The notes: a model not told the origin generated them from the letters alone. A stretch of DNA of 64,000 nt from an uncultured Helicobacter sp. (GCA_949287835.1 CASEHV010000014.1:17576-81575), one strand, 5' to 3'; shown: positions 13,908 to 60,840, numbered from the stretch's first letter. Program-made: numbers and translations.

Positions 13908-14585
13908 AATGCTGTTTTAATTTCTCATAAGGAATCTAAAGATTTTCTCTACAACAACCTCTTCACCCGCTACACGCTGCATAAGGACTTCCCGTATATC
14001 TATGACTTCACAGGCACACTGCAGGGGGCAAAAGCGGCACTTGATTGTATACAAAAACTCTATGACAAAGAGAAGTTTAAAAAGCAAAATGAGCACCAGT
14101 TCGAAGATGACTTCATCACCGCAGTGCTCAAGATTCTAGGCTGGGAATTTCTGCGTCAAGAGGAGAAAATCGTGCAGGGCAGGCTAGAGAAGCCCGACTT
14201 TTTGCTTTTCTCAAGTGGAGAGCTAAAAGAGGAATATATCTCTATACCCAAAGAGAGCAGAGCAGCGAGTAACGCAATCTTTGATGTCATCTTAGAGGCA
14301 AAGGCATGCAGCATTCCAATCGACAATAAAAAGATAAAAGGCAATCCGCATTTCCAAATCCTGCGCTACCTCTCTAGCCTCAAAAAAGACTATGGATTCC
14401 TAAGCAACGGACGCACCTGGTGCTTCTTGGATAACTCCAAACTCACCAGCACAAAGGTCTTTTATGAGATAGACTTAGAGGCAATCTTAGAGATGGACGC
14501 AGAGGAGGCGCTAGAGGATTCTTTAGTAGATGAGTTGCTTTGCAAATCACGTCATATTGAGGCTTTAATTGAAATATCTTTATAA
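13908..14585 (+). pseudogene. Remnant of a restriction enzyme N-terminus (HsdR_N / type IIG-like PD-ExK nuclease domain), without start codon and C-terminally truncated
   Basis: A 226-codon open frame starts right after a TAA, with no ATG; the first start-like codon is GTG 14124. Sequence ..FEDDFITAVLKILGWEF..EKPDFLLF..DVILEAK..PHFQILRYL..YGFLSNGRTWCF shows the PD..(D/E)xK and GxLxNGxxW signatures of restriction-enzyme N-terminal nuclease domains. No methylase or helicase part follows; repeats follow instead. Confidence 0.65.
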
Positions 14586-14591
14586 TTAACT

Positions 14592-15051
14592 CAGAATCTA
14601 AATTCTTCGCCAAAGGCTTACAATGACGATATCCGCCGTCATGTTGAACAAAGCGAAATATCTATGGAATCAATGTAGAATCTAGATTCTTCAAATTTTC
14701 GTCATTCTGAGAGCAAGTCGAAGAATTTAGATTCTTCAGATGCGTTCAGAATAACCCAAATTTACAAAAATTATATTCCTCATTCATTCAGACGTCATGT
14801 TGAGCGTAGCGAAACATTTTTGTTTTTAGAACCTGTTTAAGTGGATTCTAATACTCATCACCATTGCAGAAAGGTGTCATGGGGATGGGTATGTCATTCT
14901 GATCTTTTGATGAAGAATCTTTTATTTTTGGAATCTAGATTCTTAATATTAGTTCAAAAAGCGAATCTAAATTCCAAAAAAGATGTTTCGGGCTTTGCCC
15001 TCAACATGACATTTGTGTCATTCTGAATAAATGTGAAGAATCTAAATTCTT
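14592..15051. repeat. Intergenic cluster 1 of composite hairpin repeats (units A, B and palindrome C)
   Basis: Unit A GTCATGTTGA..GCGAAA.ATCT at 14638-14663 and 14794-14817, and reversed at 14981-15010. Unit B GTCATTCTGA-N-GAAGAATCTA at 14701-14731, 14893-14920 and 15018-15045, and reversed at 14597-14627. Palindrome AGAATCTAGATTCT at 14677-14690 and 14931-14943, plus A/G variants at 14593, 14722, 14962 and 15038. Confidence 0.85.
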
Positions 15052-28427: not shown

Positions 28428-30962
28428 TTAATTCAATAGCCTCCTTGAATTTAGCACGACACTAATAGAGCTAAGACTCATGGCTAGGCTTGCTATCATG
28501 GGGTTTAGATAGATTCCAAAGGGGGCTAGGATTCCCATAGCTAGTGGAATGCAGAGGGCATTGTAGATAAAGGCAAAGCTTAGATTCTGTTTTATATTCT
28601 TAAGTGTGTCCTGCCCTGTGAGTAGTGCTTCCTTTATGCCTAGCAGTGTTGAGTTAAAGTAAATAATATCGCCACTTTTAATGCTAATCTCACTGCCGCT
28701 TGACATTACTATGGATACATCTGCACTAGAGATAGCAATGGAATCATTCATGCCATCTCCTATCATTACGACTTTATAGCCCTTTTGCTTCATCTCTTGT
28801 ATATACTCCATTTTGCCACTAGCACTTGCTCCTGCTTTGTAATCCACCCCTAGCTCTTGTGCTATTTTCGCTACATTTGCTTCTTTATCCCCGCTTAGAA
28901 TCTCTACTTTTATATTGTTTGCCTTTAGATATTCTACTAGCTCTTTTGCATTTTCTTTTAGTCTCTCCGCTAGGGTAATTTTCCCTAGCACTAGATAGCC
29001 ACTAGATTCTCTAATATACCTTGCTACATAGACTTCTATGCCTATGTCATCTCCCTCTAGCACATCTGCATTTATAATGTTTTTGCTTTTCATAAATGCC
29101 TTGCTACCTATGATAAATGTGGAATCTAGATTCTGCAGAGATGTTTCGCTAGCACTCAACATGACGGGGGGTTGCAACATGCCTTGTTTGTTAAACATAA
29201 TGTTTTTATTTAATGTTGCGTTATTGTTTGCATTAAACTTAGTAGGACTTCCCAATGTAATGTTATTTAATGTAACGTCATTTTGAGCCACAGGCAAAGA
29301 TTCTTTCACATTTAGCCCCATGCTACCAGCGGGATTTTGATAGTTATTTTGTAGCACCGCTTCCATGCCTTGATTAATGAGGCTTTTTTGCGATTTCACA
29401 GCATAAAGTGGCACGTCTTTTAGAATCTCACAAATATTCTTTGCGATGATATGAGAGCTAAAAGATTCTATGGAAGCACATATCTTTAGCAGGGTAAATT
29501 GCAGTGGCGAATTAATTTTTAGCTTTTTTGCTAGATTCTCATCTAGCTTTTCATCAAATAAAAAGTCTTTTTGATTTTGGCTAAAAACCTCTATGCTTTG
29601 TATATGCAGTTTATTGTCTGTAAGTGTGCCTGTCTTGTCAAACAAAAAGGCATTGCAGTGCGAGATTTGCTCTAGGCTATTTGCATTCTTAAAAAAGATT
29701 CCAGCTTTGTTTGCCCTTGCATTTGCAAATAATATTGCCATAGGCGTGGCAAGACCTAGCGCGCATGGACATGAGATAAGGAGTGTGCTAACAAAAAATA
29801 GCATACCTCTCTCTATGCCATCTACATATAGCCAAAAGATTCCGCTAAGTGTGGCTAGAGCGATGATTAAAGGCACAAAAACCGATGAGATTCTATCGGC
29901 TAGGTTTGCGATATTTGCCTTGCTTGATAGACATTGATAGATGAGATGATGAATCTTTGATAGGCTAGAATCTTTACTGCTAGAGGTGGCTTTGATTATG
30001 ATAGCACTATCTGTATTAATACTGCCGGCATTTAGCGTCTGCCCCTTTGTCTTAGCCACAGGGATACTCTCACCGCTTAGATTACTCTCATCGATATTTG
30101 CATGAGGGCTAAGTAATGTAGCATCTATGGGTATGAAGCTATGGGGTAGCACTTTTAGATAATCACCCTTTTGTATGGAATCTACACTTATCTGCACCCC
30201 GCTATCTGTGTCTTTTTCACTTTTTAGTTTGTATATAATGCTTTCTTGCTTTTTTAGTAGTCTTTTCGCACTCTCTAATGCCTTTTGCTTTGCACTATGC
30301 TCGATATATTTGCCTATCATGACAAAGGTTAGAATCACACATACGCTCTCAAAGTAGAGATTATGCAATATCTGCGGACTATCAAAATCTCTTAAAAGAG
30401 TGTAGAGACTATACAGAAATCCCGCACCGCTACCTAGTGCCACTAGGGAATCCATATTTGGATTCCTAAGATATAGTGCCTTAAATCCCTTAAAGAAAAA
30501 TGCCCTGCCAAAGTGCATAACGCATAATGCGATAAATAGCTGAAGAATTGCATTGCTTTTATCATCTATGAATGTGGGGAGATGAAACATATCTCTTAGC
30601 ATACTAATATAAAGTATAACAAGAGATAGAATAACACTTAGGATAACTCTAATCTTATCATTTAGAATCTTTGTCTCTAGGATATGAAAGATTCTAAGGA
30701 TAGGATTACTTGGCGCTTCTATTTTGGAATCCTCAAAAAGTCCCTCTAACAAATATGCTCTATATCCCATATCCTCTATGAGTTTTATGATTTGCTCCTT
30801 GCTAGTTTTATTGGCAAAGAACTCAATATTAGCGCTATTACTTAGCAGAGATACTTCTGCTTTGTGTATGAAATCTTGCTTATTTAGCATTTTCTCTATA
30901 CCAGATTTGCAAGCCTGACAACTCATGCCTGCAATGCCTAGTGATAATGTCGTAGTTTGCAT
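28428..30962 (-). CDS. copA: Copper-translocating P1B-type ATPase
   Basis: N-terminal HMA GMSCQACKSGIEKML, TM CPC motif (SCPCALGLATP), DKTGTLT, and GDGMNDS. It carries a ~70-aa Asn/Gln-rich insert in the N domain. Confidence 0.9.
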   Translation of the reverse strand: MQTTTLSLGIAGMSCQACKSGIEKMLNKQDFIHKAEVSLLSNSANIEFFANKTSKEQIIKLIEDMGYRAYLLEGLFEDSKIEAPSNPILRIFHILETKILNDKIRVILSVILSLVILYISMLRDMFHLPTFIDDKSNAILQLFIALCVMHFGRAFFFKGFKALYLRNPNMDSLVALGSGAGFLYSLYTLLRDFDSPQILHNLYFESVCVILTFVMIGKYIEHSAKQKALESAKRLLKKQESIIYKLKSEKDTDSGVQISVDSIQKGDYLKVLPHSFIPIDATLLSPHANIDESNLSGESIPVAKTKGQTLNAGSINTDSAIIIKATSSSKDSSLSKIHHLIYQCLSSKANIANLADRISSVFVPLIIALATLSGIFWLYVDGIERGMLFFVSTLLISCPCALGLATPMAILFANARANKAGIFFKNANSLEQISHCNAFLFDKTGTLTDNKLHIQSIEVFSQNQKDFLFDEKLDENLAKKLKINSPLQFTLLKICASIESFSSHIIAKNICEILKDVPLYAVKSQKSLINQGMEAVLQNNYQNPAGSMGLNVKESLPVAQNDVTLNNITLGSPTKFNANNNATLNKNIMFNKQGMLQPPVMLSASETSLQNLDSTFIIGSKAFMKSKNIINADVLEGDDIGIEVYVARYIRESSGYLVLGKITLAERLKENAKELVEYLKANNIKVEILSGDKEANVAKIAQELGVDYKAGASASGKMEYIQEMKQKGYKVVMIGDGMNDSIAISSADVSIVMSSGSEISIKSGDIIYFNSTLLGIKEALLTGQDTLKNIKQNLSFAFIYNALCIPLAMGILAPFGIYLNPMIASLAMSLSSISVVLNSRRLLN
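29122..29304 (-). mobile_element. Copy of the composite repeat element embedded in frame in copA
   Basis: The coding strand reads AGAATCTTTGCCTGTGGCTCAAAATGAC ... CCCCCC GTCATGTTGAGTGCTAGCGAAACATCT CTGC AGAATCTAGATTCC. The final 44 nt match the unit at 60796-60840 and, reversed, the unit at 14962-15010. The block order is colinear with 60728-60840. Confidence 0.7.
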
Positions 30963-34611: not shown

Positions 34612-35214
34612 TTAAAATGGAATCTCATCATCTATGTCAATGTCTGGCATCTGTGCTTTGTTTGCATTATAGCCCTCACTGCCACGATTTTGATTCGCAT
34701 TAGTATTGCCCATGCTGACATTCCCCATATTTCCCATATTAGAGTTTGCCATATTATTATTTGACATGGGAGTATTTCCCATAGCATTTTTTGCATAATT
34801 ATTACGCATGTTTTGATTAAATCCCTGAGAGTTACCTTCATAGTTATCATTACCCAAGTAGGCATTATCCTGCGGGTAATCACTCTGAGATTTATTATCT
34901 AGCATGACCATAGATTCGCCTAAAATACTATGTTTGCTACGTTTATTTCCCTGCTGGTCTGTCCATGTGTCGTATTGTAATTTTCCCTCTACGAGGACCT
35001 TGGAGCCTTTCCTTAGATATTGATTTGCTATCTCTGCGGTTCTGCCAAACATATTCACATCTACAAAGCAGGTGTCATCTACAGTTGTTCCATCCTGCCT
35101 TTTGTATTTGCGATTAGATGCAATGCCAAATACAGCTACGGCTACACCTGTATTAAGATAACGCAAATCTACATCACGGGTAAGATTCCCGACTATTACA
35201 ATTCTATTAAACAT
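34612..35214 (-). CDS. ssb: Single-stranded DNA-binding protein
   Basis: OB-fold N-terminus [19 protein letters not shown], an Asn/Met/Gly-rich linker, and the acidic tip [10 protein letters not shown]. Confidence 0.95.
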
Positions 35215-35217
35215 GGA

Positions 35218-35757
35218 TTATCCCTGCACTTCCTCGCTACCGCTATCTTTACCTGAAGTCTCGCTAGGGAGATTCTCACTAGGATTCTGACTTAAATCTT
35301 TTGCTTCCTCAAAGTCTTTGGCAAAATCTTTAGCCTCACCCTCGCCAACTCTCTCTCTATGCTCACTTCTACGTTCTCTATCGCCTCTATCATCATCTTT
35401 TTTTAGTGATTTTGGCTTCTCTTTCTTATCGGCACGATTGACTAGAGATTGCCAAATTTTCTGGTCTTTTTTGCTCTCATACTTGATAATGATAAATCGA
35501 AGAATGTCCTCATTGATTCTATACAATCTCTCAAGCTCAAAAGTTAGCTCTGGATTTGCCATAAAATAAATGACAAAATAATAGCCTCGACTTTGCTTTT
35601 TAATCTGATAGGCAAGATTCCTCATTCCCATGTCAAGGCAGGTTTGTATTGTCCCGCCATTCTTGGTAATGACCTCTTTGAAAAAATCAATCTTAGCCTT
35701 TATCTCCTCCTCTACAAGAGTAGGCTTTATGATAAACATTGTCTCATAATGACGCAT
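35218..35757 (-). CDS. rpsF: 30S ribosomal protein S6 with extended acidic C-terminal tail
   Basis: [15 protein letters not shown]-terminus; 179 aa, with a tail rich in D/E/K/R. Confidence 0.95.
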
Positions 35758-35780: not shown

Positions 35781-35796
35781 TAGAATCTAGATTCTA
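35781..35796. repeat. Perfect 16-bp palindrome TAGAATCTAGATTCTA between holA and rpsF
   Basis: Isolated copy of palindrome C of the repeat family, 24 nt upstream of the rpsF start and 38 nt downstream of the holA stop. Confidence 0.8.
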
Positions 35797-60355: not shown

Positions 60356-60394
60356 AAAGTCTTTGTTAGATTCTGTTGTGGGGTTTTTGGCTTT

Positions 60395-60840
60395 GTCATG
60401 TGGAGTCTTTGCTTTGTTTAGAATGACTAAGTCGATTTTCAGAATAGCTAATAATGTCATGTTGATGACTTGTTGCTTTGTCATATTGAGTCTTTGCTTC
60501 TGCGTCATGTTGAAGATGTGCTACGTCGTCATGTTGAGGCGTAGCCGAAACATCTCTGTTTTTAGAATCTAATCTTTTTTAGAATCTACTAACATAGATT
60601 CTAATTCCCCCTCGCCTGCAAGGCTGTAGGGGGGGGTGTTAGAATCCAAATAATCTATGTCATGTTGAGACATGGCACAAACATCTTTTATAGATTCTTC
60701 GGCTAACGCCTCAGAATGACGGCTTAGGGATTCTTTGCTTTGCTTAGAATGACTGAGAATCTAGATTCTTCACATGCGTTCGGAATGACACAAATGTCAT
60801 GTTGAGCGATAGCGAAACATCTACATGGAATCTAGATTCT
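60395..60840. repeat. Intergenic cluster 2 of composite hairpin repeats
   Basis: Unit A at 60528-60555, 60659-60686 and 60796-60822. Reversed unit B at 60691-60720. TCTTTGCTTTGYTTAGAATGAC at 60405-60427 and 60731-60753. AGAATCTAGATTCT at 60756-60769 and GGAATCTAGATTCT at 60827-60840. TTAGAATCTA-CTAACA-TAGATTCTAA hairpin at 60579-60604. Confidence 0.85.
60456..60555 (+). repeat. Degenerate tandem array, 4 x 24 bp, each unit starting GTCAT(G/A)TTGA
   Basis: Unit starts at 60456, 60480, 60504 and 60528, an exact 24-nt phase. Only the last unit carries the full CGAAACATCT tail. Confidence 0.8.

Follow-up and report, generated by a model that had tools for sequence, protein, structure and literature searches.

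Why does the copper ATPase of an uncultured Helicobacter species carry some 70 residues that the same protein of other Helicobacter species lacks? The gene in question, copA, lies in a stretch of 64,000 nucleotides (nt) from an uncultured Helicobacter sp. (GCA_949287835.1 CASEHV010000014.1:17576-81575), which was analysed at its full length and is called the window here; positions are counted from its first letter unless another locus is named. In summary, it was concluded, with a probability of about 0.75, that a short hairpin repeat of the family found in two intergenic clusters of the window has been fixed in frame inside copA, and that this repeat is a member of the cross-phylum group of repetitive extragenic palindromic (REP)-type elements tagged with CGTC or TGTC. 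The gene and the parts of its insert are as follows (R1 is a covariance model of the repeat unit, described below).

28428-30962, minus strand: copA, a P1B-type copper ATPase of 844 amino acids with an intact frame (open reading frame (ORF) and translation)
29121-29333, minus strand: lineage-specific in-frame insert of 213 nt, that is, 71 codons, CopA residues 544-614 (protein alignment)
29305-29333, minus strand: 5′ end of the insert (PAGSMGLNVK), with no match to any repeat or locus
29276-29304, plus strand: putative unit 1, degenerate, CGTCATTTTGAGCCACAGGCAAAGATTCT, translated on the coding strand as ESLPVAQND (R1, 9.3 bits)
29167-29275, minus strand: 109-nt Asn-rich spacer between the unit heads, with internal direct repeats
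29166-29171, minus strand: C6 run, whose 3′-most C, read on the coding strand, doubles as the C of the CGTC tag of unit 2 (sequence reading)
29138-29166, minus strand: unit 2, a clean CGTC-tagged hairpin unit, CGTCATGTTGAGTGCTAGCGAAACATCTC, translated as (P)VMLSASETS (R1)
29121-29134, minus strand: companion palindrome, AGAATCTAGATTCC, 3 nt past unit 2, translated as (Q)NLDS (repeat match, blastn-short)

The CopA translation retains GMSCQAC in the HMA domain, SCPCAL (the CPC motif), FDKTGT (DKTGT), and GDGMND (GDGxND), which identify it as a P1B-type Cu+ ATPase. The Pfam domains PF00403, PF00122, and PF00702 are present in copA homologues, and copper ATPases were the nearest solved relatives of CopA in a sequence search of the PDB. 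An earlier reading made from the DNA alone (the sequence-only reading) had called these motifs and the frame intact and had placed an extra segment of about 70 residues in the nucleotide-binding (N) domain. Its quoted coding-strand sequence and translation are exact, the motifs and the frame are intact in the translation and in eight full-length alleles, and the length of the segment was fixed at 71 residues by a protein alignment. The alignment comprised 26 sequences, the window CopA and 25 other Helicobacter CopAs, including those of H. didelphidarum, H. bilis, H. trogontum, H. muridarum, H. aurati, H. suis, and H. pylori. The insert is flanked by ...NQGMEAVLQNNYQN and TFIIGSKAF, and of the aligned proteins only that of the window and P0001, its twin at 99% identity, have the extra residues. 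The 24 other Helicobacter CopAs of the alignment lack the insert and have a direct or near-direct join at that place, where P0035, P0003, and P0004 have a few unrelated added residues. The short connection that the sequence-only reading had given for P1B ATPases at this point rests on the 24 orthologues and on the structural model described below. The insert is bracketed by two glycines, G532 and G619, invariant in all 26 CopAs; it has no stop codon, preserves the frame, and leaves the catalytic motifs untouched.

In an exhaustive phmmer/HMMER search of 1.84 billion representative proteins, the whole insert was found only in this CopA. Four weak extra phmmer matches were unrelated tandem-repeat proteins, whose scores were summed over copies, and are not homologues. 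No homologous insert was found in any of the 24 orthologues or in another CopA among the representatives, so that the first refutation named in the sequence-only reading, a conserved insert in CopAs of genomes free of the repeat, fails. A peptide search with the insert against a word index of 5.8 billion proteins gave no match and missed P0001 itself, so that it is uninformative, and so is the search of the same index with a composite peptide of H. bilis, which also gave no match. The tryptic peptides of the insert region are ESLPVAQNDVTLNNITLGSPTK, FNANNNATLNK, and QGMLQPPVMLSASETSLQNLDSTFIIGSK.

What is the insert made of? At its 3′ end, unit 2 is followed by the companion palindrome AGAATCTAGATTC, and the same arrangement is found at 60796-60839 in an intergenic cluster. 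The 27-nt core of unit 2, GTCATGTTGAGTGCTAGCGAAACATCT (29139-29165, minus strand), differs from 60796-60822 (plus strand) at two positions, where no such match is expected from 100 shuffles. The 44-nt composite 29122-29165 is 84% identical to 60796-60839 with the palindrome included, which agrees with the sequence-only reading that the last 44 nt are the intergenic composite. The palindrome GAATCTAGATTC occurs at 10 sites of the window, against 0.4 expected by chance. The covariance model R1 was built from 126 aligned clean units of the window and about 120 other loci, with all copA copies excluded, and the whole window was searched with the filters off. R1 matches 29138-29166 (minus strand) with 37.5 bits (E = 5.4e-7 window-wide, the second-best match, and 1.8e-9 within the insert), and the remaining matches with E < 0.01 are all in the two intergenic clusters, at 14550-15044 and 60527-60823. 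By both the shuffles and R1, the similarity of the 3′ unit to the intergenic units is far above chance, and the second refutation named in the sequence-only reading, a similarity at the level of chance, fails too. The outer stem of unit 2 is ATGTT/AACAT. No family matching the repeat units was found in Rfam, and a metagenome scan gave 0 matches to the composite of unit plus palindrome. On the coding strand the insert has no terminator-like site, and as RNA the insert in its full length shows no unusual stability (z = +0.38).

The repeat unit has the form [C/T]GTC-AT-NNN-GA-(inner mini-hairpin, mostly GCGAAGC)-GA-N′N′N′-AT-C(TC). In the 126 aligned units, the C/T-GTC tag, the A-T at the start of the stem, and the GA...GA flanks are invariant; the invariance of the tag is partly imposed by the selection pattern, and the window-wide R1 matches show the tag too. 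The stem consists of 5 bp, followed by GA opposite GA and by an inner stem of 2-3 bp with a loop of 3-4 nt, and the tail consensus is C-T-C. The stem would have 9 positions only if GA/GA is counted as paired. The d(GCGAAGC) sequence forms an unusually stable DNA mini-hairpin, and tandem 5′-GA/3′-AG (sheared G-A) pairs are stable. The inner pair covaries (GC in 107 units, AU in 11, CG in 3, GU in 3, and unpaired in 2), and 0 of 500 shuffles reach its covariation score. Besides GTT/AAC, the outer stems TCT/AGA, TCC/GGA, CCT/AGG, and GCT/AGC co-occur in the same loci. This complementarity of the outer stem is no evidence for a structure because it was imposed by the selection of the units, which the inner pair was not. 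A loose structural regular expression was too noisy for finding units (44 observed versus 29 expected), and a strict pattern was used instead together with the covariance model. The half-site of the palindrome, AGAATCT, is identical to the 3′ arm of TCT-type units together with their tail. The palindrome at 14700-14752 joins the two units of a tail-to-tail dimer (R1 matches 14700-14729, plus strand, and 14729-14752, minus strand), and elsewhere, in copA and at 60796-60839, it stands alone beside a unit. The intergenic copies in the window are arranged as follows.

14550-15050, between convergent ORFs: intergenic cluster 1, with at least 9 units (both strands), among them a dimer head to head and another tail to tail, and with palindromes (R1 matches 14550-15044)
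60371-60840, between convergent ORFs: intergenic cluster 2, with units, a head-to-head dimer, palindromes, and 24-nt tandem copies of unit heads (R1)
35782-35795: solitary intergenic palindrome, AGAATCTAGATTCT, upstream of rpsF

The head-to-head dimers are at 14980-15011 (minus strand) with 15016-15044 (plus strand) and at 60762-60790 (minus strand) with 60795-60823 (plus strand). A putative unit at 35726-35753 was discarded, being merely the first codons of rpsF. In the window, the genes with units are copA, internally, and an ORF at 14124-14585, at the C-terminus only; the further cases come from other genomes. This ORF (plus strand, 153 amino acids) takes its last 12 or so codons and its stop (...SRHIEALIEISL*) from the first unit of cluster 1, at 14550-14580, and its repeat-derived extension is C-terminal, not internal. 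A 24-nt unit that starts with the unit head GTCATRTTGA is repeated in tandem about four times at 60456-60545, apparently a local amplification of half-units on the border of cluster 2. The clusters also hold a G+C-rich second module, CCCCCTCGCC...GGGGGGGG, at 60600-60632 and 14850-14890. Elsewhere in the window, ribosomal protein S6 (35218-35757, minus strand, 179 amino acids) has a long acidic C-terminal tail and SSB (34612-35214, minus strand) has a linker rich in Asn, Met, and Gly; the source genome readily bears low-complexity extensions in conserved proteins.

Does the unit enter the genes of other bacteria? A scan for the GTT/AAC version of the unit, with one genome per species, gave at least 118 stretches. 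Among the matches listed, GTT/AAC units are found in Bacteroidota, Verrucomicrobiota, Chloroflexota, Clostridia, Spirochaetota, Cyanobacteria, Bdellovibrionota, and Saccharibacteria, and also in H. bilis, H. saguini, H. aurati, and Helicobacter metagenome-assembled genomes (MAGs). Near-identical 25-nt units (e.g., TGTCATGTTGAGCGAAGCGAAACATC) were seen in genomes of at least 10 phyla (loci L003-L120). In the copA gene of H. bilis (L001), TGTCATGTTGAGCGAAGCGAAACATC is present in frame at nt 117-141 and 621-645 and is translated as CHVERSETS, in a different register from VMLSASETS because the loop of the H. bilis unit is one nt shorter; the gene also bears AGATTCTAGAATCT-type palindromes. Three copA genes of the H. 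bilis group have two to four significant R1 units per coding sequence, on both strands.

L001, 3001-5982: copA of H. bilis, with units
L121, 1501-4638: H. bilis-group copA, with units
L122, 1501-4488: H. bilis-group copA, with units

These genes have their units in two places, an N-terminal extension and the linker that joins the HMA domain to the first membrane helix, and none in the N domain. The N-terminal unit varies by strain, for P0014 has none, P0025 has one, and P0021 has one and a further 213 nt. The breakpoints of the 213-nt difference between P0021 and P0025 are at AGAWTCT motifs, and its length equals that of the window insert by coincidence. A CCCTCGCC-bearing module related to the G+C-rich module of the clusters is translated in the H. 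bilis copA (L001 3841-3930) as GYQGEGEGSVYKIHDQALAADS and occurs twice in P0021.

Units are also translated deep inside unrelated genes. An FtsK of Cloacibacterium (L067 1-1470, minus strand) has a unit in the linker that connects its 4TM and alpha domains, read as TDVSTPLNMT. An RsgA GTPase of Bacteroidales (L007 2-1210, minus strand) has three tandem units in frame (CHSEL...CHSEL...CHSELVEESL). A DUF2972 protein of H. saguini (L037 5019-6893, minus strand) has a unit deep inside, in frame, read as DVSLPLNMT. Pfam confirms that the FtsK, RsgA, and DUF2972 host genes are real. Two loci show the unit within tandem repeats: a Bacteroidaceae MAG (L003 3563-4217) has it in seven copies of a 105-nt repeat whose opposite strand is open for 301 codons, and a Bdellovibrionota MAG (L064 4245-4443) has it in four copies of a 58-nt repeat. 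The latter units, with their 58-nt period, had been considered as a CRISPR-like array; they are plain tandem repeats with identical spacers.

How does CopA accommodate the insert? In an AlphaFold2 model made from the 26-sequence alignment (mean predicted local distance difference test (pLDDT) score 71.8), residues 541-610 have a pLDDT of 23-31 and no secondary structure, and the flanking domain has a pLDDT of 75-88. Since the disordered stretch sits between strands 532-538 and 613-619, the insert is predicted to replace the turn of a beta-hairpin of the N domain as a disordered surface loop, with the fold undisturbed. By motif reading, G532 and G619 may be the counterparts of two ATP-contacting elements of P1B ATPases, the glycine-rich loop and the G-N strand (GxG; the G1149/N1150 region of ATP7B). 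The protein collection holds eight distinct alleles of this CopA, all of 844 amino acids. Five of their 13 variable residues are in the 71-residue insert, that is, 7.0% of its sites versus 1.0% elsewhere (Fisher p = 0.003), so that the amino-acid variability of the insert is about seven times that of the rest of CopA. None of the five variable sites is within the 15 unit-encoded residues. The distribution indicates a translated segment which would be weakly constrained. In all, a unit with its palindrome has become fixed, in frame, at a hairpin turn that is permissive, and is translated as a floppy loop.

Several points weigh against extending the repeat origin to the whole insert, or qualify the interpretation given so far. 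Only about 46 of the 213 nt, at the 3′ end of the insert, are securely repeat-derived by sequence. Neither the window nor about 120 other loci contain a significant match to insert nt 1-166; the 109-nt middle and the first 29 nt match nothing, so that I can only infer that they stem from the element. Unit 1, with its 9.3 bits, has an E of 4.1 window-wide, and shuffles do as well as the generic inverted repeat formed by the two heads. The duplication signal of the spacer is marginal, matched by 19 of 500 shuffles (p about 0.04). The databases hold no empty-site allele and no close relative without the insert; the next CopA is only about 50% identical. Neither a target-site duplication nor a direct repeat flanking the insert was found. 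Standard energy models predict the proposed fold of the unit at only -1 to -3 kcal/mol, no better than shuffles, so that its structure is argued from covariation only; the nearest-neighbour model used lacks parameters for the GCGAAGC mini-hairpin. The low pLDDT of the insert is in part expected because only 2 of the 26 alignment rows cover it, and its neutrality is deduced from 13 variable sites.

Is unit 1 a second copy of the repeat? When the search space is the 213-nt insert, itself defined independently by the protein alignment, unit 1 has an E of 0.014. On the opposite strand it reads CGTC-ATTTT-GA-GCC-ACA-GGC-AA-AGATT-CT, in which the tag, the 5′ arm, the GA flank, and the inner GCC-ACA-GGC hairpin are retained and the outer 3′ arm has decayed. 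Degenerate copies recognised in the intergenic clusters score like unit 1, e.g., 13 bits at 60727-60754. From these features of the sequence, it is probable but unproven that unit 1 is a second unit, placed head to head with unit 2 at a distance of 109 nt. The sequence-only reading had taken this block for a repeat, which agrees with the search within the insert and not with that of the window, and had called the insert colinear with 60728-60840. The order of the units is indeed the same (a reverse unit, then a forward unit with the palindrome), and there is no continuous alignment; the colinearity is one of unit order only because of the lack of significant matches over insert nt 1-166. It had also reported an internal direct repeat in the Asn-rich stretch, which does exist at the marginal level given above: 29206-29225 and 29263-29282 are 85% identical over 20 nt with a spacing of 57 nt, and 29254-29268 and 29269-29283 are a 15-nt tandem duplication. 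Both duplications take in the head of unit 1, which suggests that the spacer grew after unit 1 was present.

The element would have come in as two units placed head to head, as is usual in the family; one unit would have decayed since, and the spacer between the heads would have been enlarged by local tandem duplication into the Asn-rich stretch. For this sequence of arrival, decay, and growth, the odds seem slightly less than even. The insertion might have been a hairpin-directed single-strand transposition by some enzyme, an illegitimate recombination, or a gene conversion from an intergenic cluster. A miniature inverted-repeat transposable element was considered and rejected, since neither significant terminal inverted repeats nor a target-site duplication were found. 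As a separate observation, an 11-nt inverted repeat, 29114-29124 and 29304-29314 (TAAATGTGGAA and TTTCACATTTA; TAAATGTGRAA), encloses that part of the insert in which the repeats lie. There is an overlap between its right arm and the conserved TFI codons, and this arm is similar to the loop, ATAAATGT, found in the unit at 15016-15044. Shuffles do equally well, and this inverted repeat may be due to chance or may be a microhomology used at insertion.

Could the loop be older than the repeat? An Asn-rich loop of about 55 residues could have formed by slippage in an AT-rich genome, to be joined later, at its 3′ edge, by one unit with its palindrome (about 48 nt or 16 codons, PVMLSASETSLQNLDS), with unit 1 being a chance resemblance. 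Such a history would account for the window-wide score of unit 1 and for the unmatched nt 1-166; the site is prone to insertions and deletions in the clade, as the short unrelated extras of P0035, P0003, and P0004 show, the source genome has made other Asn-rich tracts such as the SSB tail, and 48 nt is divisible by three. It is nevertheless considered unlikely, since unit 1 combines the CGTC tag, the 5′ arm, the GA flank, and the inner mini-hairpin with the typical head-to-head orientation (E = 0.014 in the insert), and since the duplicated spacer motif takes in its head, as if the spacer had grown later. Is the loop, whatever its history, kept by selection for nucleotide binding or for interaction with a partner, by analogy with the loop of ATP7B and ATP7A? 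It lies between the invariant G532 and G619, a place matched to ATP7B by motif reading, where ATP7B has a 30-residue loop whose shortening abolished ATP binding (PMC3203118); moreover, its length is identical in the eight alleles and none of the five variable sites falls in the 15 unit-encoded residues. These points are outweighed by the sevenfold amino-acid variability of the insert, its predicted disorder, and its confinement to a single shallow lineage, and related species have units at quite different, strain-variable sites of copA, which speaks for opportunistic insertion. An exapted function would thus be most improbable. The favoured reading, a repeat fixed in frame, would instead regard the insert as a tolerated passenger, which remains in frame because frame-breaking variants would destroy the essential downstream half of CopA, and not for any usefulness of the peptide.

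The C6 run at 29166-29171 had been taken in the sequence-only reading as a possible source of slippage, and it was also considered whether copA might be a phase-variable contingency gene switched in this way. The homopolymer is present as described. It is short, it reads CCCTCC in the sister strain L002, and two of the eight alleles have the corresponding substitution P599S; three further DNA copies have exactly C6, and all eight alleles are full length with no frameshifted one among them. Since the run is interrupted in two of eight alleles and none is frameshifted, phase variation has hardly any credibility, and the proposed proneness to slippage was not borne out. Even less probable, to the point of being negligible, is a chimeric assembly of an intergenic repeat into copA or a random match. 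Misassembly is classically found at repeats, and the genome to which the window belongs was derived from a metagenome; against this, the same 844-residue protein or 99%-identical variants are found in at least eight sequence versions from several independent assemblies, the insert has polymorphisms of its own with an intact frame, and chance is excluded for unit 2.

What is new here, and why does it matter? In-frame copies of REP elements and of Rickettsia palindromic elements (RPEs) are an established phenomenon, and there is no new kind of element in this locus. The novelty lies in the clade of the host, in the target (a copper ATPase, struck in its N domain where ATP7B has its loop), in the repeated independent colonisation of copA among related species, and in the architecture of the unit. 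A literature search, unit sequences included, found no description of such insertions in Helicobacter, in line with the sequence-only reading. The in-frame colonisation of essential genes by REP-type hairpins, known from Rickettsia and a few other groups, now reaches Helicobacter, in which copA was struck independently at different sites in different species, with differences even between strains. For annotation, this means that length differences and 'hypothetical' low-complexity segments in proteins of enterohepatic Helicobacter can be repeat-derived, and that a single DNA unit leaves, on translation, signatures such as VMLS.SETS, CHVERSETS, and ..SL..QND. In the N domain of a P1B ATPase, about 70 extra residues are accommodated at the beta3-beta4 turn, which is a natural experiment on the loop site of the human copper ATPases. 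It would be a bolder and improbable claim that the hairpin unit, nearly identical in distant phyla, is actively mobile without a transposase of its own and repeatedly remodels the surface loops of CopA and other proteins in enterohepatic Helicobacter, with strains coming to differ in protein length, and that the copA loop, at the position of the regulatory loop of human ATP7A and ATP7B, has gained an effect on nucleotide binding. H. bilis, strain-polymorphic and tractable, could help to explain how a near-identical unit without a known mobilising enzyme occurs in multiple phyla.

How does the locus compare with known systems? Ogata et al. reportedly described, in 2000, RPE-1 and its relatives as selfish palindromic repeats lying in frame in housekeeping genes, surface-exposed and with the function of the host protein kept. 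RPE-1 is an element of 100-150 bp with its own consensus, which has struck many unrelated genes of one Rickettsia genome. The copA insert resembles the RPEs in the strict sense by its in-frame insertion into an intact conserved gene and by its predicted position in a surface loop. It differs in that no sequence relation to RPE-1 was found and that, in the 64-kb window, only copA was struck internally and one ORF at its C-terminus. The REP elements and bacterial interspersed mosaic elements (BIMEs) of E. coli, and the REPINs, have a GTAG tag and a dedicated REP-associated tyrosine transposase (RAYT). The clusters of the window share with those of E. coli the mosaic intergenic arrangement downstream of convergent genes, the short hairpin units in alternating orientation, and the companion motifs. 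The difference is in the GTAG tag and the RAYT of the E. coli elements, whereas the CGTC-type repeats are without a known dedicated transposase (PMC3733652).

The closest relatives are the CGTC-tagged REPs. In Di Nocera et al. 2013 (PMC3733652), this superfamily is defined by a terminal CGTC tag (or TGTC or CCTC), a stem starting with A-T, and a short tail; head-to-head dimers predominate, the preferred site is between convergent or co-directional ORFs, and the repeats are found in five phyla with no dedicated transposase known. The same paper includes the Neisseria dRS3 element and the Rickettsia conorii elements RPE-6 (CGTC-1) and RPE-4 (CGTC-4), and documents in-frame intragenic copies encoding 10-80 residues; the supplementary table gives 'SFLRKQES...' and '...LDSRFRGND' as R. 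conorii CGTC peptides. Both copA units start with CGTC and all 126 units with C/T-GTC, the complementary A and T at the start of the stem are matched by an invariant AT...AT, and both clusters, in the 64 kb examined, lie between convergent ORFs and contain head-to-head dimers. The small hairpin with a short tail, the spread over multiple phyla, and the in-frame copies in genes are also shared with the superfamily. The R. conorii peptides of the table, among them the '...LDSRFRGND' of CGTC-1, parallel '...ESLPVAQND' and '...NLDS' of copA in their reading pattern. In contrast, the published stem is a contiguous one of 8-9 bp with a loop of 4-5 nt, versus 5 bp, GA/GA mismatches, and a mini-hairpin of 2-3 bp here, and the published tail is CCA-like, versus CTC here. 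In the paper, Helicobacter and Campylobacterota are not mentioned and no P-type ATPase is among the intragenic cases listed. Judged by these sequence features, the unit works like the CGTC-tagged REPs and probably belongs to their superfamily, as a distinct structural variant because its stem, loop, and tail depart from the published form. The comparison with the RPEs that had been drawn in the sequence-only reading, an in-frame palindromic repeat in an intact housekeeping gene, is upheld through the CGTC/TGTC tag and the A-T stem start of a superfamily that includes RPE-4 and RPE-6.

On the protein side, the counterpart is the N domain of human ATP7B, in which beta3 and beta4 are connected by a flexible loop of 30 residues (A1114-T1143) that bacterial CopA lacks (PMC3203118). 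When this loop was shortened, the isolated domain no longer bound ATP, and the loop of ATP7B and ATP7A has been proposed to be regulatory (PMC3203118). The two loops are unrelated in sequence and origin. They are alike in being long, flexible, and non-conserved, and, if the motifs are read correctly, in lying at equivalent positions, after the glycine-rich strand and before the G-N strand. Since human ATP7B carries a loop at the position of the insert, the site where the repeat became fixed in copA is demonstrably permissive.

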